In this document: piece after piece, positions 9,870-50,514 of the stretch | Layout: every line of letters begins with the position of its first letter | Position numbering within the stretch: the first letter of the stretch is position 1 | Virus record (IMG/VR): IMGVR_UViG_3300031994_000057 | Span: 1 to 64,000 of that record | From: a virus | Taxonomy: Duplodnaviria; Caudoviricetes | DNA: 64,000 nucleotides | Direction: 5' to 3' (one strand) | The notes under the pieces: model-generated | The model's database searches: none | The model's input: only the letters and a program-made list of their open reading frames with translations | What the model was told of the DNA's origin: nothing | Position numbers and translations under genes: made by a program

Positions 9870-9881
9870 AACACAATAGTA
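9870..9881 (+). promoter_or_regulatory. antisense late-type promoter of cassette A
   Basis: AACA CAATAG TA, 2 nt before the inverted leader copy 9884-9905. Confidence 0.6.
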
Positions 9882-9998
9882 ATATGAATAAAGCTTTAGA
9901 GAAGATTTAAATATTACTTTGCTTTAGTTATAACATGGAGTTTGATTAATCTATATAAGATATAATCATGAGATATATGTTTCTGATAAATAGTGGGG

Positions 9999-10136
9999 CT
10001 ATTTATACAGAATTTTATCAATTATCCAGGACATAATCCTATAGATAAGTCGATTGTCGATATGATAACGGTAGCATACGAACATCCAAAATCGGACTTC
10101 GATGTACTCTCTAATCAAAGATGATAATCTTTTCAT
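9999..10136 (-). CDS. cassette A small protein, 45 aa (MKRLSSLIREYIEVRFWMFVCYRYHIDNRLIYRIMSWIIDKILYK)
   Basis: Hand-translated; AAAGGATGTGAT RBS; paralogous to B, E and H. Confidence 0.75.
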   Translation of the reverse strand: MKRLSSLIREYIEVRFWMFVCYRYHIDNRLIYRIMSWIIDKILYK

Positions 10137-10182
10137 AGATATCACATCCTTTGCATGATTATTTCTTCTCAGCTTTATTCAT

Positions 10183-10214
10183 ATTTATAATATATAATTG
10201 AAATATTGAACTTT
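10183..10214 (-). promoter_or_regulatory. early-type promoter of cassette A
   Basis: AAAGTTCAATATTTCAATTATATATTATAAAT directly before leader ATGAATAAAGCTGAGAAGA. Confidence 0.7.
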
Positions 10215-10232
10215 AACTAAGAAAAAATAAAA

Positions 10233-10257
10233 GCCAGAGAGTATAATACTCTCTGGC
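10233..10257 (-). terminator. hairpin terminator of cassette B
   Basis: gccagagagt-ataat-actctctggc; same stem as 9821-9845. Confidence 0.75.
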
Positions 10258-10281
10258 TTAGTAATAGATTATCACTGTATT

Positions 10282-10293
10282 AACAATGAAATA
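10282..10293 (+). promoter_or_regulatory. antisense late-type promoter of cassette B
   Basis: AACA ATGAAA TA before the inverted leader copy 10296-10317. Confidence 0.6.
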
Positions 10294-10407
10294 ATATGAA
10301 TAAAGTTATAGAGAAGATTTAATATTATTCATTTAGGTTATATACAGCTTTTGATTAATCTATAAAGATATAATCATAAAAATATATACTAACTAATAAC
10401 GTGGTGG

Positions 10408-10542
10408 TTATTTAGTAAGCTTCATAAGAAGCCAATACAATATTTTATGTATTGGCTTCTCATTGTGTATAAGATGGCGGTATATCAATATACCAATTTG
10501 GATATCAATATAACTCTTAATCAAAGAAATAATTCTTTTCAT
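10408..10542 (-). CDS. cassette B small protein, 44 aa (MKRIISLIKSYIDIQIGILIYRHLIHNEKPIHKILYWLLMKLTK)
   Basis: Hand-translated; AAAGGTGGTGAT RBS. Confidence 0.75.
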   Translation of the reverse strand: MKRIISLIKSYIDIQIGILIYRHLIHNEKPIHKILYWLLMKLTK

Positions 10543-10591
10543 AAGATGTATCACCACCTTTATGATTATATTTCTTCTCAACTTTATTCAT

Positions 10592-10624
10592 ATCTATAAT
10601 ATATAATTGAAATATTGAACTTTA
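10592..10624 (-). promoter_or_regulatory. early-type promoter of cassette B
   Basis: Same motif as at 10183-10214. Confidence 0.7.
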
Positions 10625-10639
10625 ACTAAAAAATAAAAG

Positions 10640-10666
10640 GTCTGTAGAGTATTATACTCTACAGAC
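10640..10666. terminator. bidirectional hairpin terminator
   Basis: gtctgtagagt-attat-actctacagac, flanked by A- and T-runs. Confidence 0.7.
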
Positions 10667-10672
10667 TTTCTT

Positions 10673-10912
10673 TTAGCATTTAAATCCACCAGTCATTTGA
10701 ACCGAAGTCACAGTATTATTAGGTTTCTTCAAACCTTTAATAGGAGCATTAGTAACAGAGGTAACCTTAGTCACTTTACATCTCTCTAACTCTGCTTTCT
10801 TATCTTTAAGCATGTCCTGAGCGATAAGTAACTGTTCTCCTCTGTATACTCCAGCAGCAATCTTTGATTCTAATTCTTTGATTTCTCTTTTGAGTTTATC
10901 AGCATTAGGCAT
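10673..10912 (-). CDS. small basic hypothetical protein
   Basis: AAGGAGG RBS, 79 aa. Confidence 0.75.
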   Translation of the reverse strand: MPNADKLKREIKELESKIAAGVYRGEQLLIAQDMLKDKKAELERCKVTKVTSVTNAPIKGLKKPNNTVTSVQMTGGFKC

Positions 10913-11459
10913 TGGAATATTCCTCCTTTATCTTATCAAATAACATATCTAAATCAATAGATATATTCTTTAAACCTTCAAAGGCATTTATCTTAATGTC
11001 ATAAAAACCATCGTCCATTAAATTTCCAATTTTTACAGTATGAATTATTTCATACTTTTCCTTAAGTTTATCATTGGATATCATATTCTTGATGATTTCT
11101 TTACCGCTAACAAAGTTAATCATAAGAAAGTTCTTACAACCTACGTAAGGGCTATAATAATCTTCATCTACAAGATAATCTGCTATATACTTTGGATATT
11201 TACTACTGATATATGTATTAATATCTCTATACATCTCTGCTTGTATAGCTAATTTATTATCAACTTCATCAATATGATCTGGATAAACCTGAATTACATC
11301 TATAAGACTCTCTAAAGGAAAATGATAATGATCATCAGAATTAATCACTCTTAAATCGTAAATATCATAAAATTTAGTAAATTGGAGATTAGATATAGCT
11401 TCCATTATATCACCATTACATATATCAGACATATTACGGATTAATAATAATATCTTCAT
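10905..11459 (-). CDS. hypothetical protein
   Basis: AAGGAGGAG RBS, 184 aa. Confidence 0.8.
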   Translation of the reverse strand: MKILLLIRNMSDICNGDIMEAISNLQFTKFYDIYDLRVINSDDHYHFPLESLIDVIQVYPDHIDEVDNKLAIQAEMYRDINTYISSKYPKYIADYLVDEDYYSPYVGCKNFLMINFVSGKEIIKNMISNDKLKEKYEIIHTVKIGNLMDDGFYDIKINAFEGLKNISIDLDMLFDKIKEEYSNA

Positions 11460-11470
11460 AATTCTCCTCC

Positions 11471-12190
11471 TTATCTATTAAAGAAATTCTTTCCTGATTT
11501 ACCTTTCGCTTTACCCCAATCATCATCGTCATAACTATTATATCTATCTATATTTCCATTTCCATTCATATCTACTATCCCTACATCATAAGGCATAGTC
11601 TTTATATAATTCGCCATATTTGCTCCGGCATTATATAAATCTGTATTAGCTATGAAATAATAGAATGATATAAAAGTATCTATAGTCATATCGACAAATC
11701 TATCCTTAGAATTAACTAGCATTCTAATTCCTTCTTTGTCTGTACCATCTTCATATCTCACTACTATAGGAGCAAAAGCAAGAAACATATAATCACTTAA
11801 CTTAAACTCCTGTATATCCCATTTACCTTTAATTTGTAGTTTGTTATTTTCATCAAAGAAAAATATTCTACTACTACCTACAAACCAAGGCATTATCTTA
11901 TTATCGATAAGCATCTTTAAAAGCCATACATCATTTGCTCTAAGGATAACACTATTTCTAAAATCCTTAATATCATTAATCATGAAATATGGTCTCAAAT
12001 CTCTCTTAATAGAATAACTATTCTTATTAAGATTAGACGATGTATAATGAAACTCTGAATGAAAGTTTCTAATACCTTTATCATTAGTCTTTCTATTTAA
12101 CTGCATACAAATAGAAAGAGTTATATCATTCGAAAAGTATAAAATAGTATCAGATATTTTATCAAAATCTGTAAATACTATATCTCCCAT
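11471..12190 (-). CDS. hypothetical protein
   Basis: 239-aa ORF in operon. Confidence 0.8.
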   Translation of the reverse strand: MGDIVFTDFDKISDTILYFSNDITLSICMQLNRKTNDKGIRNFHSEFHYTSSNLNKNSYSIKRDLRPYFMINDIKDFRNSVILRANDVWLLKMLIDNKIMPWFVGSSRIFFFDENNKLQIKGKWDIQEFKLSDYMFLAFAPIVVRYEDGTDKEGIRMLVNSKDRFVDMTIDTFISFYYFIANTDLYNAGANMANYIKTMPYDVGIVDMNGNGNIDRYNSYDDDDWGKAKGKSGKNFFNR

Positions 12191-12219
12191 AAATCCCAGC
12201 TTCCTTTCGTTTTATATAT

Positions 12220-12429
12220 CTACATACCAGCTTCTCTCATTCCTATTAAAGCATCTAACAAAGCCTGGTACTCATTTAATAATACAAATAATTCCTTCGG
12301 TGGATCTTTATCATTATCTGTATATTCAAATATTTTTTCTGTAATATCTTCAATCGCTACCGAAGCTCTAATCATATCTTCATTGATTAAATCTCTCATG
12401 ATAGTGCACTTTACACCACTTGTGTTCAT
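12220..12429 (-). CDS. hypothetical protein
   Basis: AAGGAG RBS, 69 aa. Confidence 0.7.
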   Translation of the reverse strand: MNTSGVKCTIMRDLINEDMIRASVAIEDITEKIFEYTDNDKDPPKELFVLLNEYQALLDALIGMREAGM

Positions 12430-12475
12430 ATTTATATAACTCCTTAATCAAGAGTTTAAAAGAATCTCTGAGGTA

Positions 12476-12772
12476 TTAAACCTCAGAGAATACTTTCTTA
12501 CTTAATACTGATGTAGTAAACGCTGTTGCAATAGAATCACAGTGATTCCTAAATGTCTTTAAAATATACATGTTTGTTTCATTCTCAAACTGGTCATAGT
12601 TATAAATGACACATCTAAACATCTCTGTGACTTTGTTATACTTTACAGTATAAGCTTCTTCCGAACCTGGTTTAATATTATCAGCAGACACTTCTTTAAT
12701 ATGTCTAACGACTCTGTTATTAATATTAACGAATACTGTGTGCTTATAAATAACCTTAGATTCATTTCCCAT
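12476..12772 (-). CDS. hypothetical protein
   Basis: GGGAGG RBS; AACA-N6-TA at 12799-12810. Confidence 0.75.
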   Translation of the reverse strand: MGNESKVIYKHTVFVNINNRVVRHIKEVSADNIKPGSEEAYTVKYNKVTEMFRCVIYNYDQFENETNMYILKTFRNHCDSIATAFTTSVLSKKVFSEV

Positions 12773-12829
12773 TTTACATTTCCTCCCAAAACACTGATTA
12801 CTTGAATGTTGGGGTGGTTGTAAAATATC

Positions 12830-13924
12830 TTATAATTTATAAATGTCTATAGGATTCAAACTAAAGTACTGGTCATTGATTAATTGAATAGCATTGTTAT
12901 CCTCTAAATCAATGAATGATAACTCTAATGGTTCAGATGAATCATTGTATATAATATCTTGATATAAAACATCTAATGCTTTATATCTACTCTCTACTAA
13001 TTGAAGAGGTAATCCTGTAATAAGAGATTCATCTGCACTAGTAAGCATATCTGGTGTGACTGTTATATCAGAGCCATTAGTAATAGAATTGATTATCTTG
13101 TTAGCCTTTGTAAAATTCACCAAAGCAGTGATTCCTCTATCAGGAAAACGATTTAGTGCTGCTAAGAGCACGTAATTACGGCTAGATATGCACACAGTAG
13201 ATTCATTTAAGACGAATTCATCTTTTTCCTGACAAATCATACGCCAAAAGCTAATTTGATGCTGAAAATGCGATTTTGGACATATTATCTCTGATATGTC
13301 TTCTCCCATAGCTTTCTTTGGTCTGATGTAAGCTACATCATCCAATATAGTTGTAAGTTGTATAGGATAGCTATCTGCTGATATAATAATACTAGGAACA
13401 TCTCTTCCATAAGATTTCTCTTTCTTAATAATATTATAGATAGCGACAGATGATTCAAATTCAGATTTAATAAAATATATCTGAGGAAGATATGGACACA
13501 TGATTTCTAATAACTGAATATTCTGTTCTACCATATCGTAGATAAGTTTATTATTTATCTTTTCTTTAAATATCTTATTATATCCAGCTACAAACTTACT
13601 ATTTATTTCTGGAATATTATATGAAGATACTAGGAATATATTTGTCTGTACTCCTAACTTCTTGAAGTAAGTTCTATAATGACCGCACATATTTATCAAT
13701 GTAGAAGTAAATACTGTATAGTCAGTTATATTAGTTACATAATGCCTGGAGAATATAGACTTATATATTCCATAGATATCTATGAATAAATCAATCTTAG
13801 TTGCAGATGATCCAGCAAATGCGTATTGAATCAGTTGATCCATTCTAGTATATTTGATGAAGTATCTAGTCATAAACATTTCTACCGGTATCGAAGCAGA
13901 TTCATTATTCTTCATCTTCATCAC
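12830..13924 (-). CDS. putative 5'-3' exonuclease / T4 RNase H-like (PIN/FEN fold)
   Basis: N-terminal LFIDIYG, acidic ESS and IIISADS segments; size fits, but the motifs are degenerate. Confidence 0.4.
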   Translation of the reverse strand: MMKMKNNESASIPVEMFMTRYFIKYTRMDQLIQYAFAGSSATKIDLFIDIYGIYKSIFSRHYVTNITDYTVFTSTLINMCGHYRTYFKKLGVQTNIFLVSSYNIPEINSKFVAGYNKIFKEKINNKLIYDMVEQNIQLLEIMCPYLPQIYFIKSEFESSVAIYNIIKKEKSYGRDVPSIIISADSYPIQLTTILDDVAYIRPKKAMGEDISEIICPKSHFQHQISFWRMICQEKDEFVLNESTVCISSRNYVLLAALNRFPDRGITALVNFTKANKIINSITNGSDITVTPDMLTSADESLITGLPLQLVESRYKALDVLYQDIIYNDSSEPLELSFIDLEDNNAIQLINDQYFSLNPIDIYKL

Positions 13925-14366
13925 TTTCCTTATTATCTTCTTCTGAGTAAGAAAGGAGCATATCTCTCATGTCGAAGTATTCACCAGAACTTGTATCTAT
14001 ATCATCATCTTTTTCAAGATTAGTAACAGACTCTTTAAAATCATCTCTCTTTATAAGAGATTTTAATACAAGCTTAGTTCTACCATAACCTTTATCGGTC
14101 ATAACTTCAACTAACTGGTTAGGTCCTTCTTCTGTCATGAATACAACACCTTTGTTTGCTCGTTCTGTTCCGTCCTTATCAATAAGCCATCTTCTTATCT
14201 CAAGACGTGCTTTAGCAGGATCAGGTTCATCTCCTTCTTTAATCCATTGCACGTAACGCAATGCTGTATATTGGTTACCCTTCTCTTCTACAATTTCATT
14301 TGTTCTATCTAAAAATATAAATGGTTTTATAGGTCTGTCATCAGATTTATTAAACATTATAATCAC
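13905..14366 (-). CDS. PC4/YdbC-like ssDNA-binding protein
   Basis: ALRYVQW...RLEIRRW...KGVVF resembles the PC4 fold; acidic tail. Confidence 0.5.
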   Translation of the reverse strand: MIIMFNKSDDRPIKPFIFLDRTNEIVEEKGNQYTALRYVQWIKEGDEPDPAKARLEIRRWLIDKDGTERANKGVVFMTEEGPNQLVEVMTDKGYGRTKLVLKSLIKRDDFKESVTNLEKDDDIDTSSGEYFDMRDMLLSYSEEDNKESDEDEE

Positions 14367-14434
14367 CTCATAATTAGAAAAAAATGATGTGCTGGACTCC
14401 TGCCCAGCACATCATATTGTTTACATCAGACAAA

Positions 14435-15166
14435 TTATCTGATAATGGAAAGTCCCTGATTGGTATTGAGACCGAACTGCTTAGCTAATCTATCAACTTC
14501 GCTACTGCTTACTCTCTCGATAGCAAGAAGGTAGTTGTTAGTAGCTGTAGGGCCAACGAATGAGAATGAAGGGATGGATCTGATTACTCTTACACCATAT
14601 ACCCACTCGTCATTGTCATTTCCATAAATAACCTCTGCAATCTTAGCAGGATCAAGATACTTAACCTGTGTAAACTGCTGAGGAATTGTGAAGTTCGAAT
14701 CAGCAACTTCAGACACCAGCTTTGCCCAGTTTACTTTACGAACATTGTCTTTTGTTGAGAAGAAATCATTGAATACGAAATCTTCAAGTCCCTGTCCCTG
14801 TTCTGTAAGATAATATCTATCTCCATTGATGAGACGGTTACTATAAGATCTTGTGGATCTTAAAGTAGAGTTAACTGCAGAAGCAGTTGTGTCTTCCTTG
14901 CTGCATGCAAAAGGAAGTCCCTTTTCTTCTACTCTGTGGTTGAAGAAAAGGTCGATTGCAGGACGATTGCTACCAGGAACAAAATCGAACATACAACCTT
15001 CATAGTCGGAATAAATGTTACTGAACAAAGCAGAAACGCGCTCACAGAGTTCAGTTGAAGTTACATACTCAGCATCCATGATTCTCTTCATGTCTTCATG
15101 CTCTGTTACGAGATCTGAAATTTTGAACTTCACTGTCTTGGCAGCGTCTTCGTTGATGTTTGACAT
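14435..15166 (-). CDS. hypothetical, probably highly expressed early protein
   Basis: AAGGAGG RBS; strong AAC/TTC/ATC/CGT codon bias; own promoter and terminator (gatgtgctgg/ccagcacatc, ~14385-14415). Confidence 0.85.
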   Translation of the reverse strand: MSNINEDAAKTVKFKISDLVTEHEDMKRIMDAEYVTSTELCERVSALFSNIYSDYEGCMFDFVPGSNRPAIDLFFNHRVEEKGLPFACSKEDTTASAVNSTLRSTRSYSNRLINGDRYYLTEQGQGLEDFVFNDFFSTKDNVRKVNWAKLVSEVADSNFTIPQQFTQVKYLDPAKIAEVIYGNDNDEWVYGVRVIRSIPSFSFVGPTATNNYLLAIERVSSSEVDRLAKQFGLNTNQGLSIIR

Positions 15167-15327
15167 AATTATGTCCTCCTTATAAATAAAAAATATTCTT
15201 CGAATAATTTTCGATTTGTTCCAGCAAGAGAATCATTAAGCTGGGATAGATTCTCTTACTGGATATGACTTTATTAAATATGACTGTGAATAATACTTAA
15301 TTCAGTCATACAAATCTCCAATCATTC

Positions 15328-15356
15328 ACTTATATAATATATAATCAAAATTATTT
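15328..15356 (-). promoter_or_regulatory. early-type promoter with ~165-nt structured 5' leader
   Basis: TTTTGATTATATATTATATAAG core; hairpins at 15221-15262 and 15281-15308. Confidence 0.55.
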
Positions 15357-16442
15357 TTGATTACTATATTTGTTGTAAAATTGAATTCTTAATTTATCGA
15401 TTGCTGAGAGTTTATTCTCTTCTTCGATTAAATCAGATTCTCTATGTTCTCCATCAAGAATATATGAGATAATATATGTAATATTAGTTGTATCTCTGAG
15501 TAAGACATAGTTGGTATTATTGAACTCAGCTAAGTCTATATCTACATCATACTTCATGATAATACATTTGTCCTGGATGTTTAATCTAAATGTCTTAGCT
15601 ATGAATGCTCTTAATTCAGCATTAGCATAAGATACTTCAAGACCATTTTCATCTTTAATATCTGTATAGTCAGATATATCGAAATCTACAGCAGATACAT
15701 TTCTCATAGTATCCATATCTGTCTGTACATTATTCTCAATAAGTAGGGTCTTTAAATCTCTACACCATCCATCATGAGATATTCTGTTATCTTTAGCAGA
15801 TACATAATTAGGATCAATAGTCTTCATATGAATCTGATATAATTTCTCTAATACTTTATCATATAAAGTAGTATCAATCATCTCTAATACATCATTTATG
15901 GTATCTGTTAAATAGAAGTGTACCATTGTAAAATTAAACACCTCATCACAAGCAGCCATCATATAATAAGGAATTTCAACAGGACAATTCTCTCTAGAAC
16001 AACATACTCCCGCTAACTCTTTTGTGTCACCACTAATGATACCATAGAAGAAGTCATTTACAGACTGCCTACAAATAGCATACGGCTCATTGATATTGAG
16101 TTTGATATCTACCAATCTATATAATGAGAAGATGACATCATAATTCATTAATGTTTTAATCTTATCATCCTGCATACCTACTTTAGCTACAGTAACAAAA
16201 CCAGTAGGTTCAAGAGGAGTATAACCAGATAACTCTTCAATACCGATTACCTTCTCTTCATTAGTATCACAATTCTTAATCTTTACTTTATTATCGTCTT
16301 TTATAATTTTAATAACTCTGACTAAATCAACCTCTTCTGAATCTTCTTTATTCTTAAAGAACTTATATCCTAAATATTTTGATAATTTCTGTTCTTCTGT
16401 AAAAGTTTTCTTATTAGATGTAAAATAATGTGTAGTGGCCAT
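15351..16442 (-). CDS. hypothetical protein
   Basis: 363-aa ORF with CACA-N6-TA upstream. Confidence 0.8.
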   Translation of the reverse strand: MATTHYFTSNKKTFTEEQKLSKYLGYKFFKNKEDSEEVDLVRVIKIIKDDNKVKIKNCDTNEEKVIGIEELSGYTPLEPTGFVTVAKVGMQDDKIKTLMNYDVIFSLYRLVDIKLNINEPYAICRQSVNDFFYGIISGDTKELAGVCCSRENCPVEIPYYMMAACDEVFNFTMVHFYLTDTINDVLEMIDTTLYDKVLEKLYQIHMKTIDPNYVSAKDNRISHDGWCRDLKTLLIENNVQTDMDTMRNVSAVDFDISDYTDIKDENGLEVSYANAELRAFIAKTFRLNIQDKCIIMKYDVDIDLAEFNNTNYVLLRDTTNITYIISYILDGEHRESDLIEEENKLSAIDKLRIQFYNKYSNQK

Positions 16443-16579
16443 AAAAGAACACCTCTCCTATATATTTATATTGTATATAAATGTGAATGATATTGTAAAA
16501 ATGCAAAATTATACCCAAGGAATACTAAGATTCCTCAGGCATAATTTGATTTTTAGGAATTTATGTGATTAATTTTATG

Positions 16580-18622: not shown

Positions 18623-18624
18623 AT

Positions 18625-19839: not shown

Positions 19840-19959
19840 AATACTTAACCTCCTTAACTCATTATTAATGTGTTCGGGGTTATTAGAACTCTTATATAAA
19901 TAACATATTGTATATTTTTACAGTGAAAACTTTAATATAATTCTAGTGGAGGATTATTT

Positions 19960-20331: not shown

Positions 20332-20358
20332 ATATATAATATTTAGGAGGGAAGATTA

Positions 20359-26552: not shown

Positions 26553-26669
26553 TCAAAAACATGATTAATTGTTCCACCCTTTACATAAGCTACTTAAAGA
26601 ATGCCCCAGAGACTAGTGCAGTCTCTGGGGTGTTTTTTTTGTAAATTAAAATACATATAACTTTTAAGT

Positions 26670-26845
26670 AAAGAGTGGTGGTGAAGCCAAACCTCGTTCA
26701 ATTTATTGAACAATATGCTCGCACCCTTAGAGCACTTAAGCAAATTGCAACAATTTGTCCCCAAAGACAAGAGAACTAACCCCCTTTTGTTTATAAGAGT
26801 TACATTATAAAACTAACGTCAAAATGCCCTTCGCTTACCACTCTT
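26670..26845 (+). ncRNA. candidate ~175-nt structured RNA with paired ends
   Basis: AACT-N6-TA at 26659-26670; AAGAGTGGT (26671-79) pairs with ACCACTCTT (26837-45); internal hairpins; followed by a T-run. Confidence 0.45.
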
Positions 26846-26934
26846 GCCTTTTTCTTTTTAGTTCTGCCATACTATTAGAAAAAATAAAAGAGGTAGGGAA
26901 CTAATCCCTACCTCTTTTGCTCTGTTATTCAATT

Positions 26935-28086: not shown

Positions 28087-28098
28087 AACTATATAATA
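28087..28098 (+). promoter_or_regulatory. antisense late-type promoter of cassette C
   Basis: AACT ATATAA TA overlapping the start of the inverted leader copy 28098-28111. Confidence 0.6.
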
Positions 28099-28163
28099 GA
28101 AGCATAGAAGATAGAAATTAGATTAATACCTTCAAAACTTATTATTCAATAGAATAAAAGTCA

Positions 28164-28337
28164 TTAAAAGATATTACTATCAGGCACGATAGTCTCGTTA
28201 ATCTTTTCTTTAAGATATAACGATAAATAAGATGTGATGATATAAATGGTTTGGCATTTAATATCATTGTCTTTCATATATCTATGGTAATATATCACTG
28301 ATATATTATGAAGAATATAATATAGACAATCTATCAT
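28164..28337 (-). CDS. cassette C small protein, 57 aa (MIDCLYYILHNISVIYYHRYMKDNDIKCQTIYIITSYLSLYLKEKINETIVPDSNIF)
   Basis: Hand-translated; AAAGGAG RBS; paralog of D. Confidence 0.75.
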   Translation of the reverse strand: MIDCLYYILHNISVIYYHRYMKDNDIKCQTIYIITSYLSLYLKEKINETIVPDSNIF

Positions 28338-28376
28338 TATTTAATCTCCTTTCTTAATATTTCTTCTATGCTTCTT

Positions 28377-28411
28377 ATCTATATTATATATTATTGAAAT
28401 TATATACTTTT
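28377..28411 (-). promoter_or_regulatory. early-type promoter of cassette C
   Basis: AAAAGT-N7-TTCAATAATATATAATATAG. Confidence 0.65.
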
Positions 28412-28426: not shown

Positions 28427-28438
28427 AACTATATAATA
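28427..28438 (+). promoter_or_regulatory. antisense late-type promoter of cassette D
   Basis: AACT ATATAA TA before the inverted leader copy 28438-28451. Confidence 0.6.
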
Positions 28439-28516
28439 GAAGCATAAGAGATTAAAGAGTAGAGAATAACCAATAAACTTCGCTTGCTAATTATATATCT
28501 ACACTGTAACCATTAA

Positions 28517-28666
28517 TTACAGTCCATTAATCTTTTCTTTAAGATATAATGACAGATAATATAATACAATATAAATTACATAGAATTTAATATTGTTTTT
28601 CTTCTTATATTCATTTAAATATATCAGAGATATATTATTGCTGAGAATATAAAGATAATCAGTCAT
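28517..28666 (-). CDS. cassette D small protein, 49 aa (MTDYLYILSNNISLIYLNEYKKKNNIKFYVIYIVLYYLSLYLKEKINGL)
   Basis: Hand-translated; AAAGGAG RBS; shares YLSLYLKEKIN with C. Confidence 0.75.
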   Translation of the reverse strand: MTDYLYILSNNISLIYLNEYKKKNNIKFYVIYIVLYYLSLYLKEKINGL

Positions 28667-28705
28667 TGAAATAACTCCTTTCATTTTATTTCTCTTATGC
28701 TTCTT

Positions 28706-28740
28706 ATCTATATTATATATTATTGAAATTCCTTACTTTT
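28706..28740 (-). promoter_or_regulatory. early-type promoter of cassette D
   Basis: Same motif as cassette C. Confidence 0.65.
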
Positions 28741-35931: not shown

Positions 35932-35935
35932 ATAA

Positions 35936-39375: not shown

Positions 39376-39502
39376 TGAAGTGGATTAAGAAAATCTACTT
39401 TAAAAAGGAGATTCGTAATGCAAACAATTATTTTTTCTAACCCGAGTCAATAGCAAATCAATAATATAAGGGAAATTGAATATTGACAAGGGGGTTTATG
39501 TG

Positions 39503-41884: not shown

Positions 41885-41976
41885 TTGTTTGGTAGTAATT
41901 TTAATTATATTTATATATGAGGTAGGGTATAATTACCCTACCTCTTTATGTTTTGTTTATTATAAGGAGGTGTATT

Positions 41977-42387: not shown

Positions 42388-42484
42388 CTAACGAGGGGTA
42401 TGTAGAAATACATGCCCCTTAAATTTTTGATATTTATTAAGGCATTCACTTATCTATAAGAATACTCTAGGAGGGTTGTGATAA

Positions 42485-42973
42485 ATGTTTAAGAAACGAG
42501 AAAAAATAGATAAGCAAGAGGTATTTGACTCACTATTATTTTCATTTGAAAAATCGGCTGGTAATGCAGCTAGAATCACATTTAGATTAGCAGGTACAGA
42601 GAATATGAAGAGCCATCTTAAATTCTCTATAATGGTTAATGATATTATGAAGTATAAAGATAATCCTATAATATTATTTGAACCTGAATCTCATAAACCT
42701 GCTATTCCATTCTTTAAACAACAATTAGATTCAGATGGTAAAGTGGTAAGCTTTATACTTATATTAAAGGAATTCTTAGAGAATGCTAATTCATTAGTTA
42801 TAGAGAGTTTGAAAGATAAAGACCATGTGTTATATCGTATCACTTCAGAGTATGATGACTTTATTACCGAATTATCATTCTATGAATCTGATATGTATCC
42901 ATCTGTTTCTAAATATATTATCAATACAACAGCAGATGCTATTTATAAAAAAGCTATGAAGGGGAATAAATAA
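42485..42973 (+). CDS. hypothetical protein
   Basis: 162 aa, GGAGGG RBS. Confidence 0.75.
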   Translation: MFKKREKIDKQEVFDSLLFSFEKSAGNAARITFRLAGTENMKSHLKFSIMVNDIMKYKDNPIILFEPESHKPAIPFFKQQLDSDGKVVSFILILKEFLENANSLVIESLKDKDHVLYRITSEYDDFITELSFYESDMYPSVSKYIINTTADAIYKKAMKGNK

Positions 42974-42976
42974 TCA

Positions 42977-43114
42977 ATGAAACATTATTTAATTACAGTA
43001 GAAGAAATTAACTCACCTGAAACTAAGAAGACTTATGTAATAAATCAATATGAGAAAGATAAAGTTGACTCAATAATAAAAGAGAGTCTAGAAAATAAAG
43101 ATATAGAAGATTAG
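42977..43114 (+). CDS. 45-aa hypothetical protein
   Basis: Hand-translated MKHYLITVEEINSPETKK...; fills the operon gap. Confidence 0.55.
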   Translation: MKHYLITVEEINSPETKKTYVINQYEKDKVDSIIKESLENKDIED

Positions 43115-43126
43115 AGGAAATATATT

Positions 43127-44578: not shown

Positions 44579-44591
44579 TATCTAAAAGGAG

Positions 44592-45644
44592 GTGAGTTTA
44601 GTGGATTGGAATTTGTATAGACAATTCCTATTAACTAATATTCCAACTGCTAGAACTGCCTCTGGTGGAACATTCGTTACTTGTAAATGTATGGAATGTG
44701 GAGATTCTCTAAAGTCTAAGAATACACACATGTATATCAGTATTCCTCAGAATGATGATGATGTATCTTGGTACTATTGTCATAAATGTAATTGCTATGG
44801 GTGGGTTACTCATAACACATTAATCAAATGGGGATTATTTGATAAAGATATTGCTCTGGGATTATCTGAGCATATAACTAAGATAAGACTATCAGGTAAG
44901 GGTGACAGACTTTTCCGTCCGTCAGTATATCGAATTAGGCATAGTTACGTGACCCCTAATGCGAAAACAGAAGAAAAACGACAATATGTGTGTAATCGTA
45001 TAGGAAGAGACCTTTCAGTGGCTGATTTGTGCAATTTGAAGATTTGTCTCAATTTGATAGACTTATTAGAAGAAAACAATATTCGATATCTAACTAGAGA
45101 TAAGAGTATTGTTGAACAGTTAGACAGAGAGTTTGTTGGATTTATATCTATAGATAACGCATTCCTTAATATGAGAAGAACTTGTGATGAGGGAATTGTA
45201 AATGAGAATATCGATAAGAGATATATCAATTATAGAATATTTGATAAAGAAGATACAGCGCAAAGATTCTATACAATTCCATCGCAAGTAGATTTAAATT
45301 CTAGGAATAGAATTAAATTACATATAGCAGAAGGACCATTTGATATTTTATCAGTATATCTAAATCTTAGAAATTGTGAACCTGGAATATATACAGCTGT
45401 ATCAGGAAATAATTATTTCAATATTATTATGCATTTCTTATCGACTATGAAGTTACCATATGTCTCTTTAGAAATGTATATAGATAATGATGCTTATGGA
45501 TCAATTGATAGAATTAAGAGTATTATGGATAAGATTCCTGATAAGACTATTCCTGTATATATTCATAAGAATACATATCCAGGTGAGAAGGATTTTGGTG
45601 TACCTTTGAATAGAATAAATGAGTCTGTATTGAAACTAAGATAA
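44592..45644 (+). CDS. DNA primase (Zn-binding plus TOPRIM)
   Basis: CMECGDS..CHKC; HIAEGPFDILS; YIDND. Confidence 0.8.
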   Translation: MSLVDWNLYRQFLLTNIPTARTASGGTFVTCKCMECGDSLKSKNTHMYISIPQNDDDVSWYYCHKCNCYGWVTHNTLIKWGLFDKDIALGLSEHITKIRLSGKGDRLFRPSVYRIRHSYVTPNAKTEEKRQYVCNRIGRDLSVADLCNLKICLNLIDLLEENNIRYLTRDKSIVEQLDREFVGFISIDNAFLNMRRTCDEGIVNENIDKRYINYRIFDKEDTAQRFYTIPSQVDLNSRNRIKLHIAEGPFDILSVYLNLRNCEPGIYTAVSGNNYFNIIMHFLSTMKLPYVSLEMYIDNDAYGSIDRIKSIMDKIPDKTIPVYIHKNTYPGEKDFGVPLNRINESVLKLR

Positions 45645-45657
45645 TGGGGGATTACTT

Positions 45658-45828
45658 ATGTTTGCTATGAAAGATGAACAATCTGGAAAAGTTAAGTTTA
45701 GAGGAACCGAAGCAGAATGTTTAGAATTCTCTAAACAGAATCCTAATTATAAATATGTCATGGAAGATTTAGATAAAGATAAGGAGAAGTTCAAGAAGTA
45801 TCAAGTAGTAGATTCTATAGAAGATTAA
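45658..45828 (+). CDS. 56-aa hypothetical protein
   Basis: Hand-translated MFAMKDEQSGKVKFRGTEAEC...; GGGGG RBS. Confidence 0.6.
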   Translation: MFAMKDEQSGKVKFRGTEAECLEFSKQNPNYKYVMEDLDKDKEKFKKYQVVDSIED

Positions 45829-45845
45829 TTCAAAGGAGTTTCTCG

Positions 45846-46043
45846 ATGGTTGATTCACAAACAATAGAAGAGTTAAAGAAGGATATTATATTTAGTTGTG
45901 AATTTATATTAGATGATGACGATGATGTTTCTGTAAGAAAATCATTTATATCTTTATTCGTAGAAAAGAGTTTGAGAAAATCTAAATTATCAGATGATAT
46001 CATGAGAGATATCATTGAAGATATATGTAATGAATTAGTCTAA
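45846..46043 (+). CDS. hypothetical protein
   Basis: AAAGGAG RBS. Confidence 0.7.
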   Translation: MVDSQTIEELKKDIIFSCEFILDDDDDVSVRKSFISLFVEKSLRKSKLSDDIMRDIIEDICNELV

Positions 46044-46057
46044 GAAAGGAGGACCAT

Positions 46058-46303
46058 ATGAATATTCCCTGGGCGATGCATATTAATCTATCTCATAATA
46101 AAGAAAATCTAGAACGATTTACAACGAATATTAAATTCGATGAAGATATGAAAAAATATTCATATGATATAGATGATATATTAGACCAGATTAAAGAGAT
46201 GCTAGAGAAATATGGTCCTATAGAATATCATAAGTCTGTTGATGTAAAAGCATTAGAAAGATTTATGATGAAACGATTAGTAGAAATGGATAAGATAAAA
46301 TAA
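46058..46303 (+). CDS. hypothetical protein
   Basis: AAAGGAGG RBS. Confidence 0.7.
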   Translation: MNIPWAMHINLSHNKENLERFTTNIKFDEDMKKYSYDIDDILDQIKEMLEKYGPIEYHKSVDVKALERFMMKRLVEMDKIK

Positions 46304-46350
46304 GTGGAGTCACATACTCCACTTATTTAATTTCAGTTGGAGGTATTAAA

Positions 46351-46542
46351 ATGGCTAAAGTATATTTAAAAGATAAGATGTATGGCTTCTTAATCGATGC
46401 TGATAAGATAGTCAAATTTGAGAAGAATGAGAAGAAAGGTGAAGTCACAGCATACTTAGCAATGGGTGATAAGTATGATACTATCATTCTTTCTGCAGAG
46501 ACTTACAATAATTATATGAAGAATTGTAAGATTATATATTAA
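46351..46542 (+). CDS. hypothetical protein
   Basis: GGAGGT RBS. Confidence 0.7.
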   Translation: MAKVYLKDKMYGFLIDADKIVKFEKNEKKGEVTAYLAMGDKYDTIILSAETYNNYMKNCKIIY

Positions 46543-46557
46543 TGGAGGTATTATATT

Positions 46558-47664
46558 ATGGAATTTCATATAAATGATAAGGTAAAATTTAAATCAATAA
46601 ATGAGAATAATGAAATTCGATCTGGTAAAATTACTGAAATCATTGATGATAGTTATTTATTTAACAGAAAATTTTATAATATCTGTTCAGAAGGTGAAGT
46701 TTATCTAAATATACCTGAAGGGTCCATTATTAGTTATTTTCCAGTTACAGATTGTATTGAAGATGAATGTGTCGATGCAGTGAAAGAGCAGGAGAGACCT
46801 TCCGATAAGTATAAAAATTATAAACGTGGTGATTGTGTTTACCTTATAAATGATCCAATGAATGTACACGATCACGTAATTATCACTGCAATTTATTCGG
46901 ACAATACTATAGGTGTAATTGATTTGCTTGGAAGAGTCTATGTATTGGATTTATCGAATACTTTTATAAAACGGAATTTTGGTAATATCATTATTCCTGG
47001 GTTTGGCGAAGTAAATGAAACAAGAATACCTGTTTTTGACGATTTTAAATATCATTATGGTGATATTGTTACATATACCAGTGGATTAGATAAATATGTT
47101 GGAAGAATTGAAAGTGGAATACATATTGAAATAGTCTATACAGATTTATATCCATCATCAATTGAATATCAAATTATAAATATAGATAGCTCAATTAATG
47201 CATTGAGGAATTATAATGAGATAGAACCTGGTGATTATAGAATGAAAGAGCAGGAGAATAAAATCACCATGGAAGATATTCGGAACTGTTTCGATGATGA
47301 CTTTGCCGCAGATGGTGATGATAAGTGTGATGCTGAAGAAGATTATCGCTGTTCATATCAAGACAAAATTGGATGTCCTGTTGAAATTTTTACAGGTCCA
47401 TTAGCACCACTTCAATCATTCAAAGATATCTCTGAAATAAGATTTGATAAACCTGAAATAACTATAGTTTATTCTAATGGCGGAGAGTCTAATGTTGAAC
47501 TTCCAAAGAATGCATATAATAAGAAAGTAGGTTTTCTCTTAGCATATCTTAAGGGAATATTAGATGATATAGAATATGCTAGAGTCGCTGGTATTATGGA
47601 ATCGATCAATAAGGAACCTCAGCAGATTATTGTGAATTTAGAGACTTATAATGAAGATGATTAG
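46558..47664 (+). CDS. SH3/KOW-like repeat protein, paralog 1
   Basis: Three (F/Y)xxGD(K/C/I)V modules; tandem paralog follows. Confidence 0.7.
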   Translation: MEFHINDKVKFKSINENNEIRSGKITEIIDDSYLFNRKFYNICSEGEVYLNIPEGSIISYFPVTDCIEDECVDAVKEQERPSDKYKNYKRGDCVYLINDPMNVHDHVIITAIYSDNTIGVIDLLGRVYVLDLSNTFIKRNFGNIIIPGFGEVNETRIPVFDDFKYHYGDIVTYTSGLDKYVGRIESGIHIEIVYTDLYPSSIEYQIINIDSSINALRNYNEIEPGDYRMKEQENKITMEDIRNCFDDDFAADGDDKCDAEEDYRCSYQDKIGCPVEIFTGPLAPLQSFKDISEIRFDKPEITIVYSNGGESNVELPKNAYNKKVGFLLAYLKGILDDIEYARVAGIMESINKEPQQIIVNLETYNEDD

Positions 47665-47677
47665 GAGGTATTATATT

Positions 47678-48751
47678 ATGGAATTACAAATAAAAGATAA
47701 AGTAAAGTTTAGAAGTGTATCCGAGAACTTAGTAAAGATTGGTTTGATTAAAAATATTACTCATAAACTTAATAATCCTAATAATAAATATGAGATTCTT
47801 GCTGATGACGGAGAATTGTATCTTAATGTATATGAAGATGATATAATTAGCTTTCTTGGTTTTGGCCCTTCATATATGACTGATGAATGTAATGATACAG
47901 TAGAAGAGTTGACGGCAAACTGTATTGACAAGGCTAAAGTTGAAGTAGGTGATTGTGTTTATCTTGAGCATAAATCAGATAAAGAAATAAAAGGTGATTT
48001 TATCATTACATATATCCTGGGTAATAAAATAGAGTTATTATCTTTAACAGGAATACATTATTTTGTTTACAAAGAAAATGTCAAAATCACTGCAAATATA
48101 GGTTCTATATTTATTCCTGGAGTAGGATACAGTCATACAGTATTACTTAATAAAGGTAAAATAGACACAGATACCTTCATGTATAGATTAGGTGATATTG
48201 TTACTATTAAAGCCACAAAACGAGTAGGTAAGATTGTTGATGCTTATTTCTCTAGAAGTAACGGATGTATAGCATATAAAATTGATTATTTTGATAACAA
48301 TGAAGATGAGTATATAGTATGGCAACCTTATACTAATATAGAACCTGGTGATTATAGAATGAAAGAGCAGGAGCAGAAGACTAAATCAGATAAAAATTTT
48401 ACATATGAATGGGATGAAGAATCAGGACTCTCAGTACATGGACGCTGTGATAAATGCCCTGCTACGGATATTCTCAATCAAGATTCATTAGCAGGTTTAC
48501 GTTCTCATGATGATATATGCTCAATAAGTTTTCATAAACCTTTGGTATCTATATATTATAATAATGGCGGAGAGTCTAATATTGAACTTCCAGAGATTGT
48601 ATATAATAAGAAAGTAGGTTTTCTCCTGGCATATATTCAAGGTTTAGTATCAACCAAAGAATATCATAAAGTTATCAGTGTTATGGAATCAATCAACAAA
48701 AACCCTCAGCAGGATATTGAATTTGATGAGACTTGTAATGAAGATGATTAA
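47678..48751 (+). CDS. SH3/KOW-like repeat protein, paralog 2
   Basis: Same architecture; identical 36-nt stretch encoding IEPGDYRMKEQE. Confidence 0.7.
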   Translation: MELQIKDKVKFRSVSENLVKIGLIKNITHKLNNPNNKYEILADDGELYLNVYEDDIISFLGFGPSYMTDECNDTVEELTANCIDKAKVEVGDCVYLEHKSDKEIKGDFIITYILGNKIELLSLTGIHYFVYKENVKITANIGSIFIPGVGYSHTVLLNKGKIDTDTFMYRLGDIVTIKATKRVGKIVDAYFSRSNGCIAYKIDYFDNNEDEYIVWQPYTNIEPGDYRMKEQEQKTKSDKNFTYEWDEESGLSVHGRCDKCPATDILNQDSLAGLRSHDDICSISFHKPLVSIYYNNGGESNIELPEIVYNKKVGFLLAYIQGLVSTKEYHKVISVMESINKNPQQDIEFDETCNEDD

Positions 48752-48763
48752 GAGGTATTCTCT

Positions 48764-49021
48764 ATGGCTAAGAATAATAAGTTGATTGATACTTGTAATA
48801 GGCTATTAGCAGATAAGATATCTCAAATATTACCATGTGCATTCTGTTCATTCTTAGTAGTACTCTATGAAGAATATGGTTGGACAACAGACCAATTAGA
48901 AGAGTTATTAAATAGAGTACAAGCTAGATATGATGAACTAGAAGAAATGGGTAATAAACAGATGAATACTTACTGTGAAGAACGTACAGGAATCACTCTA
49001 ATACCAAACAAAGACAGATAA
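48764..49021 (+). CDS. hypothetical protein
   Basis: 85 aa; ends before the hairpin 49029-49053. Confidence 0.7.
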   Translation: MAKNNKLIDTCNRLLADKISQILPCAFCSFLVVLYEEYGWTTDQLEELLNRVQARYDELEEMGNKQMNTYCEERTGITLIPNKDR

Positions 49022-49071
49022 GAAATAGCCAGAGGAGTATAATACTCCTCTGGTGTTTTATTTTTTTTTTA

Positions 49072-49105
49072 TAAAAGTTAGATATTTCAATAATATATTA
49101 TATCT
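49072..49105 (+). promoter_or_regulatory. early-type promoter of cassette E
   Basis: AAAAGTTAGATATTTCAATAATATATTATATCT. Confidence 0.7.
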
Positions 49106-49146
49106 ATGAATAAAGTTGAGAAGAAATAATTGTGGAGGCTATATGT

Positions 49147-49284
49147 ATGAGAAAGCGACTTAGCTTCATTAAAGATTATTTCGATACTAAATATTGCGAA
49201 ATCATATATAGACATGATATCCACAATGAGAAATTTATCCATAAAATAATTTATTGGATAATCTCAAAAACCATTATTAAATAG
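49147..49284 (+). CDS. cassette E small protein, 45 aa (MRKRLSFIKDYFDTKYCEIIYRHDIHNEKFIHKIIYWIISKTIIK)
   Basis: Hand-translated; GGAGG RBS; shares YRHxIHNEKxIHKIxYW with B. Confidence 0.78.
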   Translation: MRKRLSFIKDYFDTKYCEIIYRHDIHNEKFIHKIIYWIISKTIIK

Positions 49285-49395
49285 CCACCAACTATTTATA
49301 TTGGTATATCTAGATAATTAATCATCTGATTAATGAGTATCATAATAACAATATGTGAAATGGTATAACAATCTTCTCAATAACTTTATTCATAT

Positions 49396-49407
49396 TATTT
49401 CATAGTT
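49396..49407 (-). promoter_or_regulatory. antisense late-type promoter of cassette E
   Basis: Minus strand AACT ATGAAA TA, 2 nt before the inverted leader copy 49373-49393. Confidence 0.6.
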
Positions 49408-49431
49408 ATTATGATATTAATATCTTAATAG

Positions 49432-49460
49432 AGAAAGAGGAGCATAATACTCCTCTTTCT
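49432..49460 (+). terminator. hairpin terminator of cassette E
   Basis: agaaagaggag-cataata-ctcctctttct plus T-run. Confidence 0.75.
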
Positions 49461-49473
49461 TTTTTTATAAAAA

Positions 49474-49506
49474 AAAAGTAGATTATTTCCATAATATATT
49501 ATATCT
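49474..49506 (+). promoter_or_regulatory. early-type promoter of cassette F
   Basis: AAAAGTAGATTATTTCCATAATATATTATATCT. Confidence 0.65.
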
Positions 49507-49551
49507 ATGAAAGAAACTAGAATAAATATAAAGAAAGGAAAATTAATAGAT

Positions 49552-49704
49552 ATGAGAAGAATTGTATTTAATCTTAGATCTAAACTTGATGATATTTATA
49601 TCTCCAGATATTATGAAGATATGATTTCTGATTGTGATAGGTCTTTCTATTATAATATTTTAAAATACTTATGTATCTTTCTTTATAAGATCGAGCATCT
49701 ATAA
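49552..49704 (+). CDS. cassette F small protein, 50 aa (MRRIVFNLRSKLDDIYISRYYEDMISDCDRSFYYNILKYLCIFLYKIEHL)
   Basis: AAAGGA RBS before ATG 49552; the track start 49507 lies in the leader. Confidence 0.72.
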   Translation: MRRIVFNLRSKLDDIYISRYYEDMISDCDRSFYYNILKYLCIFLYKIEHL

Positions 49705-49792
49705 TTATCGCAACTAATTATAGATGAGATATCAATCAAGTTAATATTATATCCCAATTTCTATATATTGACTATATTCTAGTTTCTTTCGT

Positions 49793-49804
49793 TATCTTAA
49801 AGTT
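49793..49804 (-). promoter_or_regulatory. antisense late-type promoter of cassette F
   Basis: Minus strand AACT TTAAGA TA before the inverted leader copy 49775-49790. Confidence 0.6.
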
Positions 49805-49823
49805 AACCTAGTTTTATTTTTTT

Positions 49824-49858
49824 GTAAAAGTTGGTTATTTCAATAATATATTATAGAT
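49824..49858 (+). promoter_or_regulatory. early-type promoter of cassette G
   Basis: AAAAGTTGGTTATTTCAATAATATATTATAGAT. Confidence 0.7.
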
Positions 49859-49903
49859 ATGAAAGAAACTAGAATAAATATGGTACAAAGGAGATGATAT
49901 AAT

Positions 49904-50056
49904 ATGAAGCCTTTGCTTAATAAAGCTAGGTCTATTATAGATACTAAATATATTTATATCTTATATGAACTCACACTTCAGAATAAGAATAATAGTATTA
50001 TCTGTAATATATTATCTATAATTAGTAATGTATTATATACATTAGAGAATTTATAA
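49904..50056 (+). CDS. cassette G small protein, 50 aa (MKPLLNKARSIIDTKYIYILYELTLQNKNNSIICNILSIISNVLYTLENL)
   Basis: Hand-translated; AAAGGAG RBS. Confidence 0.75.
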   Translation: MKPLLNKARSIIDTKYIYILYELTLQNKNNSIICNILSIISNVLYTLENL

Positions 50057-50137
50057 AATAAATTCATATCTTCATAACTCCATAAGTTAATATAATTCCC
50101 AATTTCTATATATTAACTATATTCTAGTTTCTTTCAT

Positions 50138-50149
50138 TATCTCAAAGTT
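50138..50149 (-). promoter_or_regulatory. antisense late-type promoter of cassette G
   Basis: Minus strand AACT TTGAGA TA directly before the inverted leader copy 50120-50137. Confidence 0.6.
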
Positions 50150-50167
50150 AATCATGTTTTATTTTTG

Positions 50168-50201
50168 TAAAAGTAGATTATTTCAATTATATATTATAGA
50201 T
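50168..50201 (+). promoter_or_regulatory. early-type promoter of cassette H
   Basis: AAAAGTAGATTATTTCAATTATATATTATAGAT. Confidence 0.7.
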
Positions 50202-50245
50202 ATGAATAAAGCCATGAAGAAATAAATTCATGGAGGATATTTAGA

Positions 50246-50384
50246 ATGATTGATAAGATTAAGAATTCAATTATTCAATATTTAAGAGGCAAGATATATT
50301 ATTTTGTACTATTTAAATATCATCCACGAAGAGACAAAAGCCCAGAGCATTGAGCTCTGGGTATTGTCCAAAATTCTTAAATAG
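50246..50384 (+). pseudogene. cassette H small protein, frameshifted (35 aa as read; ~45 aa if repaired)
   Basis: MIDKIKNSIIQYLRGKIYYFVLFKY runs on to TGA 50351-53; the shifted frame gives IHEETKAQSIELWVLSKILK*, matching the A/B/E C-termini. Confidence 0.6.
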
Positions 50385-50502
50385 TCTCACCACTATTAAG
50401 AATAAATCTGTAATAAGTTAAATTTCCTCACAAGAATTTAACGAGTATCACAATACAATATGTAAAGTAATAATCAAATCTTCATTACAGCTTTATTCAT
50501 AT

Positions 50503-50514
50503 TACTTTATAGTT
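50503..50514 (-). promoter_or_regulatory. antisense late-type promoter of cassette H
   Basis: Minus strand AACT ATAAAG TA before the inverted leader copy 50480-50500. Confidence 0.6.

Follow-up and report, generated by a model that had tools for sequence, protein, structure and literature searches.

Why should small early genes of a phage each end in an inverted copy of their own leader, and why should a late-type promoter point back over the gene from the edge of every such copy? This question is raised by a DNA stretch of 64,000 nucleotides (nt), termed here the window, which comprises the first 64 kb of the 86.9-kb viral contig IMGVR_UViG_3300031994_000057 (about 35% complete by CheckV; GC content 28-36%). 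Eight cassettes (U1-U8) of common anatomy are found in the window, each lying opposite one late-type motif and each built, in order, of an early promoter, a purine-rich leader, a strong ribosome-binding site, an open reading frame (ORF) of 35-57 amino acids (aa), a 3' untranslated region (UTR) of about 100 nt and the inverted leader copy. They are read here, tentatively and with slightly less than even confidence, as convergent early/late units, in which a late antisense RNA would silence the small early peptides while a closing helix formed by the leader and its inverted copy would protect the RNA 5' end. The motifs, their positions and conservation, the covariation of the two repeat arms and the predicted folds are observed directly.

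The contig was probably obtained from a sheep gut metagenome, and the phage is uncultured. Its TerL shares 38-39% identity with the TerL proteins of the Bacillus jumbo phages BpSp and Goe21 and less with those of Staphylococcus jumbo phages, and a 588-aa protein encoded outside the window (contig 66931-68697, + strand) is 30% identical to the N-terminal part of AR9 g145, the β' subunit of the virion RNA polymerase (RNAP). Together, these similarities place the phage, as a distant and uncultured member, in the AR9/PBS1-like group, which relies on two RNA polymerases of phage origin. The early promoter of AR9 is AAATATATATTAT-N6-G, with the G as +1 (PMC5312081), and its late promoter is AACA-N6-T-A/G, with the last base as +1 (PMC5312081; PMC5449584), so that the rules given in the initial annotation of the window were correct. 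The late polymerase of AR9 reads template-strand positions -11 to -8, even in single-stranded uracil-containing DNA, and any change at these positions abolishes transcription (PMC5449584). Moreover, seven AR9 late promoters drive antisense RNAs (PMC5312081), among which a mapped start (AACA-N6-TA at 115851) converges on the 3' end of g142 (PMC5312081, text and supplement), and these mapped late antisense starts provide a precedent for the reading proposed here.

The early promoter of the cassettes, TTTCAATWATATATWATA, reproduces the AR9 rule in its core and spacing. Beyond the window, six further cassettes were recovered by a metagenome scan with the extended early promoter and from viral-contig loci; L077 contributes two, which recur in L079 and L142, and a single one comes from each of L147, L148, L165 and L166. 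The early core ATATATTAT-N6 followed by G at +1, identical to that of AR9, is found in 12 of the 14 cassettes, while U3 and U4 have an A at +1 and the core ATATATAAT. The leaders of the window fall into three families, namely A (U1, U2, U5, U8), B (U3, U4) and C (U6, U7), and those of the further cassettes are unlike them except in L147, which is B-like; each further cassette possesses its own matching 3' arm. In all 14, the early +1 and its pairing partner are 248-303 nt apart.

The late-type motif AAC[AT]-N6-TA is present exactly where the initial annotation had placed it, at 9870, 10282, 28087 and 28427 on the + strand and at 49407, 49804, 50149 and 50514 on the - strand. The distance of 0-2 nt between motif and inverted repeat given there holds as well, because the DNA repeat runs 2-5 nt past the early +1. 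Measured from the pairing partner of the early +1, the predicted late +1 is displaced outwards by 5 nt in U1, U2, U5 and U8 and by 3 nt in U6 and U7, and it coincides with the first arm base in U3 and U4. Per kb and strand, the motif occurs 1.59 times in intergenic DNA away from gene starts, 0.78 times in coding DNA and 5.07 times in the 60 nt upstream of start codons, the last value being 3.2-fold above the intergenic background. A chance match in a 3-nt slot would be expected at about 0.005 per cassette, or about 1e-7 for three independent leader families, so that the background-frequency check proposed for the eight-of-eight placement indicates an arrangement not explained by chance.

When the search was relaxed to nAC[AT]-N6-TA, 16 matches in the 14 cassettes fell into a nine-position slot from -5 to +3 around the partner of the early +1, and only five into the rest of the surrounding 45 nt on either side. 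The further cassettes present GACA, AACT, TACA and CACT with the late +1 at -3 or -4, and TACT in L165, where the start lies 3 nt inside the arm; the predicted late +1 is thus located at -5 to +3 nt in 14/14 cassettes, across five contigs and about seven leader sequences. A helix-anchored alignment of four independent lineages with the offset -3 revealed that A-C (-13/-12) and T-A (-4/-3) are invariant and that their neighbours vary. Similarly, within family A the GTTA (reverse complement TAAC) and the TA are invariant and four of the six spacer bases vary, which reads as the footprint of a two-part recognition element.

Do these motifs belong to the promoters that head late genes? An unbiased survey of the 60 nt preceding every called gene yielded 36 sites of nAC[AT]-N6-TA ending 14-40 nt before the start codon, and late elements a short distance upstream of structural genes are likewise found in AR9. 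The assertion that the same motif precedes TerL, baseplate and tail genes was borne out for TerL (31767, -) and for a tail-fibre-like gene (58786, +), whereas no baseplate gene was identified. The search pattern itself dictates A-C at -10/-9 and A/T at -8 in the 36 gene-proximal sites, in which any base can occupy the first position (16 A, 9 C, 3 G, 8 T). These sites also favour T after W, A before T-A and A-T after T-A, and the last two of these preferences recur in the cassette sites. The A-C and the A/T hold in the 14 cassette sites, the 6-nt spacer followed by T at -1 and A/G at +1 is present in the eight window and the six other cassettes, and position -11 is A in 8/8 window cassettes and G, T or C in other contigs. 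At the positions outside the pattern, the mean score is 1.10 for cassette sites, 0.68 for gene-proximal sites (leave-one-out) and -2.14 for coding matches (p = 1e-4), the contrast between cassette and coding matches being inflated in part by intergenic AT-richness. By such in-genome criteria the cassette motifs look like real late promoters, and they are assigned on sequence grounds to the late-promoter class of this phage, nACW-N6-TA, which resembles that of AR9 in the A-C at -10/-9, the 6-nt spacer and the T-A at -1/+1. That the cassette late promoters fire at all is considered probable.

Another late-type promoter, AACT-N6-TA at 26659 (+) with a predicted +1 at 26670, stands at the head of an RNA of about 175 nt (to 26850) that contains no gene, folds into a 16-base-pair (bp) closing helix from nt 2 with several internal hairpins (z -7.4) and is followed by a terminator near 26885-26920. 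Since its closing helix begins at nt 2, this RNA supports the late +1 rule, and it suggests that this phage habitually buries RNA 5' ends in long-range helices.

What, then, is the inverted repeat for? A 5'-3' helix that closes the early RNA, with covarying arms, accounts for it better than antisense shut-off does, and the initial annotation mentioned this feature only indirectly. Among the 14 cassettes, 156/168 cells of the first 12 arm positions pair, with 3-5 pair types per column, a result reached in 0/5000 shuffles. Changes between paralogues are matched in the partner arm, as is seen for a C/T exchange between U1 and U2, for the second half of the arm in U8 and for a GA-to-AG swap between U3 and U4. 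The pairing starts at the predicted early +1 in 12/14 cassettes, and the predicted folds of all eight window sense RNAs pair nt 1 or 2 with the 3' arm. The z-scores of the sense-RNA folds are -5.2, -5.9 and -7.5 with the shuffles of the tool and -5 to -10 in our own runs; the inner parts are also structured, and the sense strand has a lower folding energy than the antisense strand in 8/8 units, which indicates that structural selection acts mainly on the early RNA. Pairing of the 5' end is known to slow 5'-end-dependent decay in low-GC Gram-positive hosts. The further expectation that both RNAs start nearly alike is sustained if the start-site rules transfer, in which case sense and antisense RNAs share 10-16 leading bases, or 17-22 with one bulge.

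The evidence on the helix would also be accommodated by a closing helix alone, in which the inverted copy makes a panhandle of the early mRNA and the adjoining late-type motif is either inactive in vivo or serves the sense RNA as part of its 3' tail. Such a panhandle could serve in 5'-end protection, as a stalk for processing by a double-strand ribonuclease (RNase) or as a termination aid, and none of these roles requires an antisense promoter; the arm covariation, the helix start at the early +1 and the better sense folds in 8/8 units are all in keeping with it. However, it leaves unexplained why nACW-N6-TA stands in a 9-nt slot in 14/14 cassettes while spacer and flanks drift, why the same motif class heads late genes, and why the agreement of the cassette sites with the late consensus extends to further positions. 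A helix without a working late promoter is therefore regarded as unlikely, although by no means far-fetched.

The antisense strand itself was inspected for coding capacity and terminators. No conserved ORF with a ribosome-binding site was found on this strand in the window cassettes, and at two of the three loci transcription along it would reach a terminator without meeting a gene. A relaxed scan for terminators inside the unit detected a strong one in U8 only and a weaker hairpin in U2, with none in the other 12 cassettes, so that most antisense RNAs would cross the whole unit; their 3' ends would then consist of the leader complement, which by symmetry would form the same closing helix. A short antisense RNA with its own terminator was also considered as a general form, and it is supported for U8 only and weakly for U2.

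Could the late antisense RNA be the product in its own right, namely a stable, closed and structured non-coding RNA with a late function of its own, whose overlap with an early gene merely saves space? The predicted late +1 flush with the terminal helix and the second closed RNA headed by a late promoter (26670-26850) would fit this idea, as would the predicted folds of the antisense RNAs (z -3.3 to -7.2) and the conservation within the units, which is highest over the 70-110 nt that follow the late +1. Nevertheless, the sense strand folds better in 8/8 units, the inner antisense structure is weak in several of them (z +0.1 in U7), and the conservation of the 3' region equally fits a function of the sense-RNA 3' UTR, which makes a separate antisense product very unlikely.

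The peptides raise a different possibility. The ORFs (35-59 aa over the cassettes) are under purifying selection with a ratio of nonsynonymous to synonymous substitution rates (dN/dS) of 0.2-0.7 and thus appear to be real genes, and the peptides are rich in Tyr, Ile and Leu as well as charged residues. Type I toxin-antitoxin loci with a 5'-3' long-distance interaction are known from the fbi element of hok/Sok (PMC9841398) and from aapA1/IsoA1, in which the full-length aapA1 mRNA carries this interaction (PMC5416894), and convergent antitoxins overlapping at the 3' end have been described in Bacillus subtilis prophages for bsrG/SR4 (PMC3834814) and yonT/SR6 (PMC5848175). By analogy, the cassette peptides might be harmful to host or phage, the mRNA might be a stable, poorly translated store as in hok/aapA1, and the convergent RNA might act as antitoxin. 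The small selected ORF, the compact mRNA whose extreme 5' end is paired to its 3' end by a covarying interaction, and the promoter for a convergent cis-encoded RNA on the 3' side all agree with this proposal, and the terminator-like hairpins on the antisense strand of U2 and U8 would yield RNAs of 150-180 nt.

In contrast with these loci, the ribosome-binding site is not consistently masked by the closing helix, for its predicted accessibility changes little or inconsistently upon removal of the 3' arm, which weakens a hok-like reading. Internal antisense terminators are absent in 12/14 cassettes, so that in most copies an antisense RNA would reach from one end of the unit to the other; the peptides, as read from their translations, are amphipathic and charged and not clearly membrane-spanning; and instead of constitutive host promoters, two promoters of phage-polymerase type, which would act at different times, are present in a lytic jumbo phage that carries eight copies in 87 kb. 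A toxin-antitoxin-like role is accordingly judged distinctly unlikely.

At the DNA level, the arms might be recombination sites of an invertible segment, by which the ORF would be swapped between the early and the late promoter, or the ends of a miniature mobile element. Arms of 14-22 bp do flank about 250 bp, and their covariation could also arise from gene conversion between the arms. On the other hand, the ORF has the same orientation, away from the early promoter, in 14/14 cassettes without any flipped copy, the arms contain bulges, and the duplicated units include a promoter and a terminator outside the arms, which implies tandem duplication rather than transposition of an arm-bounded unit. 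An inversion switch or mobile element was consequently rejected as hardly credible. A last variant, to which only the slimmest chance is given, is that the early RNAs, through their single-stranded 3' tails, serve the late polymerase as decoys of the 6S-RNA kind or even as RNA templates. It is suggested by the fact that these tails may copy the template strand of a late promoter beside the helix (3'-to-5' U-U-G-W, six bases, A-U), an element which the AR9 non-virion polymerase recognises in single-stranded, uracil-containing form (PMC5449584); if true, the switch from early to late transcription would depend on how much early RNA is present.

The convergent early/late unit, which follows the initial annotation and amends it by the closing helix, remains the favoured reading, and from the observations above we infer where both RNAs start, when they are made, that an antisense RNA exists and that it silences by pairing or collision. 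Early in infection, the virion RNAP would start at ATATATWAT-N6-G and produce a strongly folded mRNA of about 300 nt for a peptide of 35-59 aa, the first 14-17 nt of which would pair with the 3' arm, and the 5' end, buried in the long-range closing helix, would probably be shielded from 5'-end-dependent decay. Late in infection, the non-virion RNAP would start at nACW-N6-TA on the opposite strand, at the outer edge of the 3' arm, and transcribe back over the entire unit. The resulting antisense RNA would be non-coding, possess the same closing helix by symmetry and be complementary to the complete early RNA. Through duplex formation and cleavage by a double-strand RNase, through head-on polymerase collision, or through both, the production of early peptide would end once late transcription begins. 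The main job of the repeat would be to close the early RNA and, by symmetry, the antisense RNA, with the 5' end base-paired.

Several points weigh against this scheme. It rests on sequence and predicted folds from an uncultured phage, and its start-site rules are borrowed from AR9, whose relatives at the level of TerL are only 38-39% identical. AR9 tolerates no change at -11 to -8 (PMC5449584), whereas here position -11 is free and -8 may be A or T, and the freedom at -11 implies that the rules of the enzyme differ from those of AR9. No non-virion RNAP gene was found in the 87-kb fragment with 85 kb of AR9 as the query, and no leader/3'-arm repeat was detected in AR9, either at the mapped antisense promoter of g142 or at eight early-promoter core matches in the 85 kb scanned. 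Folding energy, as predicted, favours the sense strand in 8/8 units, and an inverted repeat is not required for antisense shut-off. Furthermore, the cassettes within a family are paralogues, so they amount to about seven independent samples rather than 14, and the inflated score contrast noted above has to be counted here as well.

The individual features of the cassettes are located as follows. U1 is encoded on the - strand, with an early promoter of virion-RNAP type at 10186-10203 (a TTTCAATWATATATWATA match whose core ATATATTAT-N6-G is as in AR9, PMC5312081; predicted +1 the G at 10180), the 5' arm, or leader, at 10164-10180, an ORF of 45 aa at 9999-10136 and the 3' arm, an inverted leader copy with a 3-nt bulge, at 9886-9905; the convergent AACA-N6-TA occupies 9870-9881 on the + strand with its predicted +1 at 9881. 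The neighbouring U2 is organised likewise, comprising on the - strand the early promoter (10595-10612, predicted +1 the G at 10589), the 5' arm (10573-10589), an ORF of 44 aa (10408-10542) and the 3' arm (10298-10317), opposed by the + strand late-type promoter at 10282-10293 with a predicted +1 at 10293. An intrinsic terminator for the U1 sense RNA is situated at 9819-9847, with a T-run on the - strand only, and one for U2 at 10231-10259 (-), while a hairpin at 10640-10666 with T-rich tails on both strands (+ tail TTTCTTTT) would stop the + strand antisense RNAs from 9881 and 10293.

U3 and U4 also lie on the - strand. In U3, the early promoter (28382-28399, predicted +1 the A at 28376) is followed by the 5' arm at 28362-28375, an ORF of 57 aa at 28164-28337 and the 3' arm at 28098-28111, and the + strand AACT-N6-TA at 28087-28098 has its predicted +1 at 28098, the first base of the arm. 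The corresponding elements of U4 are the early promoter at 28711-28728 (predicted +1 the A at 28705), the 5' arm at 28691-28704, where the GA-to-AG swap relative to U3 is located, the 49-aa ORF at 28517-28666, the matching 3' arm at 28438-28451 and the + strand late-type promoter at 28427-28438 (predicted +1 at 28438).

The remaining four cassettes are arranged in a row on the + strand, with their late-type promoters on the - strand. U5 is composed of an early promoter at 49085-49102 (predicted +1 the G at 49108), a 5' arm at 49108-49124, an ORF of 45 aa at 49147-49284 and a 3' arm at 49372-49391, and its late-type promoter is at 49396-49407 (predicted +1 at 49396). In U6, the early promoter at 49486-49503 (predicted +1 the G at 49509), a perfect 16-nt 5' arm at 49509-49524, a 50-aa ORF at 49552-49704 and the 3' arm at 49775-49790 face the late-type promoter at 49793-49804 (predicted +1 at 49793). 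U7 harbours the early promoter at 49838-49855 (predicted +1 the G at 49861), the 5' arm at 49861-49876, another 50-aa ORF at 49904-50056, the 3' arm at 50120-50135 and the late-type promoter at 50138-50149 (predicted +1 at 50138). U8 contains the early promoter at 50181-50198 (predicted +1 the G at 50204), the 5' arm at 50204-50220 with its changed second half, a probably truncated ORF of 35 aa at 50246-50353, the correspondingly changed 3' arm at 50479-50498 and the late-type promoter at 50503-50514 (predicted +1 at 50503). Terminators on the + strand serve the sense RNA of U5 (49430-49462) and those of U6-U8 (50537-50568), and a two-way terminator-like hairpin left of U5 (49028-49054) is a possible stop for the - strand antisense RNAs. 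In addition, a palindromic core, GAGTATWATACTC, is common to six terminator hairpins (9827, 10239, 10647, 23304, 49035 and 52656), with 0.01 expected by chance, showing that the phage has a conserved terminator motif.

Some peculiarities of single cassettes deserve mention. In the region 50246-50361, the 35-aa ORF of U8 ends in the loop of a GC-rich hairpin, which is a strong terminator on the opposite strand (50361-50341 plus a T-run), and U8 may be a decaying copy or a source of short antisense RNA. The last 70-90 nt of U6 and U7, covering 3' UTR, arm and late motif (49752-49821 and 50097-50166), are 91% identical while the ORFs share only 49% of their nucleotides, and these flanks are either strongly constrained or homogenised by gene conversion. 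In the L165 cassette, a strong hairpin and T-run (-18.7 kcal/mol) lie within the first 45 nt of the RNA, in the 5' UTR, and may be an attenuator ahead of the ORF. Moreover, bases 228-1270 of the JGI contig L169:1-1270 match 28357-27315 of the window at 99.8%, including the exact U3 peptide and 3' arm; ahead of the ribosome-binding site, an unrelated 63-aa ORF stands in place of the 5' arm and the early promoter, and the contig is either a natural recombinant or an assembly chimera.

Among the cassette paralogues, the ORFs are far more diverged (49-74% nucleotide identity) than the flanks (85-94%), and no family was found in Pfam or PHROGs for any of the eight window peptides. A mini-ORF (MNKxxxK-like) in the leader copies was considered and rejected, because U6 lacks the ATG and the early +1 is located within that codon. 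Identical cassette peptides (look-ups 28164-28337 and 49904-50056) with the same neighbours are encoded by a contig of 259,257 bases in the ENA assembly ERZ27256871, and a complete genome of this phage therefore probably exists. A read-run search disclosed the sheep-gut runs of origin and one metatranscriptome that contains a small share of the sequence words.

How widespread is the arrangement? Among 111 viral-contig loci with the exact early promoter, cassettes occurred only in L077 and L079, and the other matches were AT-rich noise. In about 250 kb from the four closest TerL relatives (52-53% identity) no cassette was found, and searches with the flanking genes returned nothing or one distant contig without a cassette at that position. 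No match was obtained among GenBank phages by distant blastn, and in Rfam no family passed the gathering score, the matches at E below 1 being noise. A full-text literature search found no paper describing an early promoter, a closing helix and a flush late promoter in one cassette, a combination not known to have been described previously.

Temporal control by cis-antisense RNA is known in phages from oop of lambda and sar of P22. Early antisense RNAs against late genes have been reported for PAK_P3 (PMC4933390), and an antisense promoter of the phage RNAP, P001, for LUZ19 (PMC10914365). In all four, as proposed here, a stage-specific promoter fires against another temporal class, with shut-off or leak prevention as the proposed outcome. 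The direction is reversed with respect to PAK_P3, since here late would act against early, and the present cassettes differ from all four in the dedicated promoter per cassette, its position flush with a covarying terminal helix and the many repeated copies. AR9 has mapped late antisense promoters, including the one convergent on the g142 3' end, but its named antisense targets include the late virion genes g125 and g126 (PMC5312081), whereas small early genes would be the targets here.

For the question of how early genes are shut off in jumbo phages with two RNA polymerases, the cassettes offer a concrete, repeated and conserved arrangement, with a dedicated late promoter for each small early gene, flush with a covarying terminal helix. 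Small diverging peptides within strongly conserved control flanks are candidate host-takeover or counter-defence factors. Meanwhile, the terminal helices that begin at the predicted first transcribed base lend independent support to applying the AR9 start-site rules to uncultured relatives, and they suggest an RNA-stabilising rule for this phage group.

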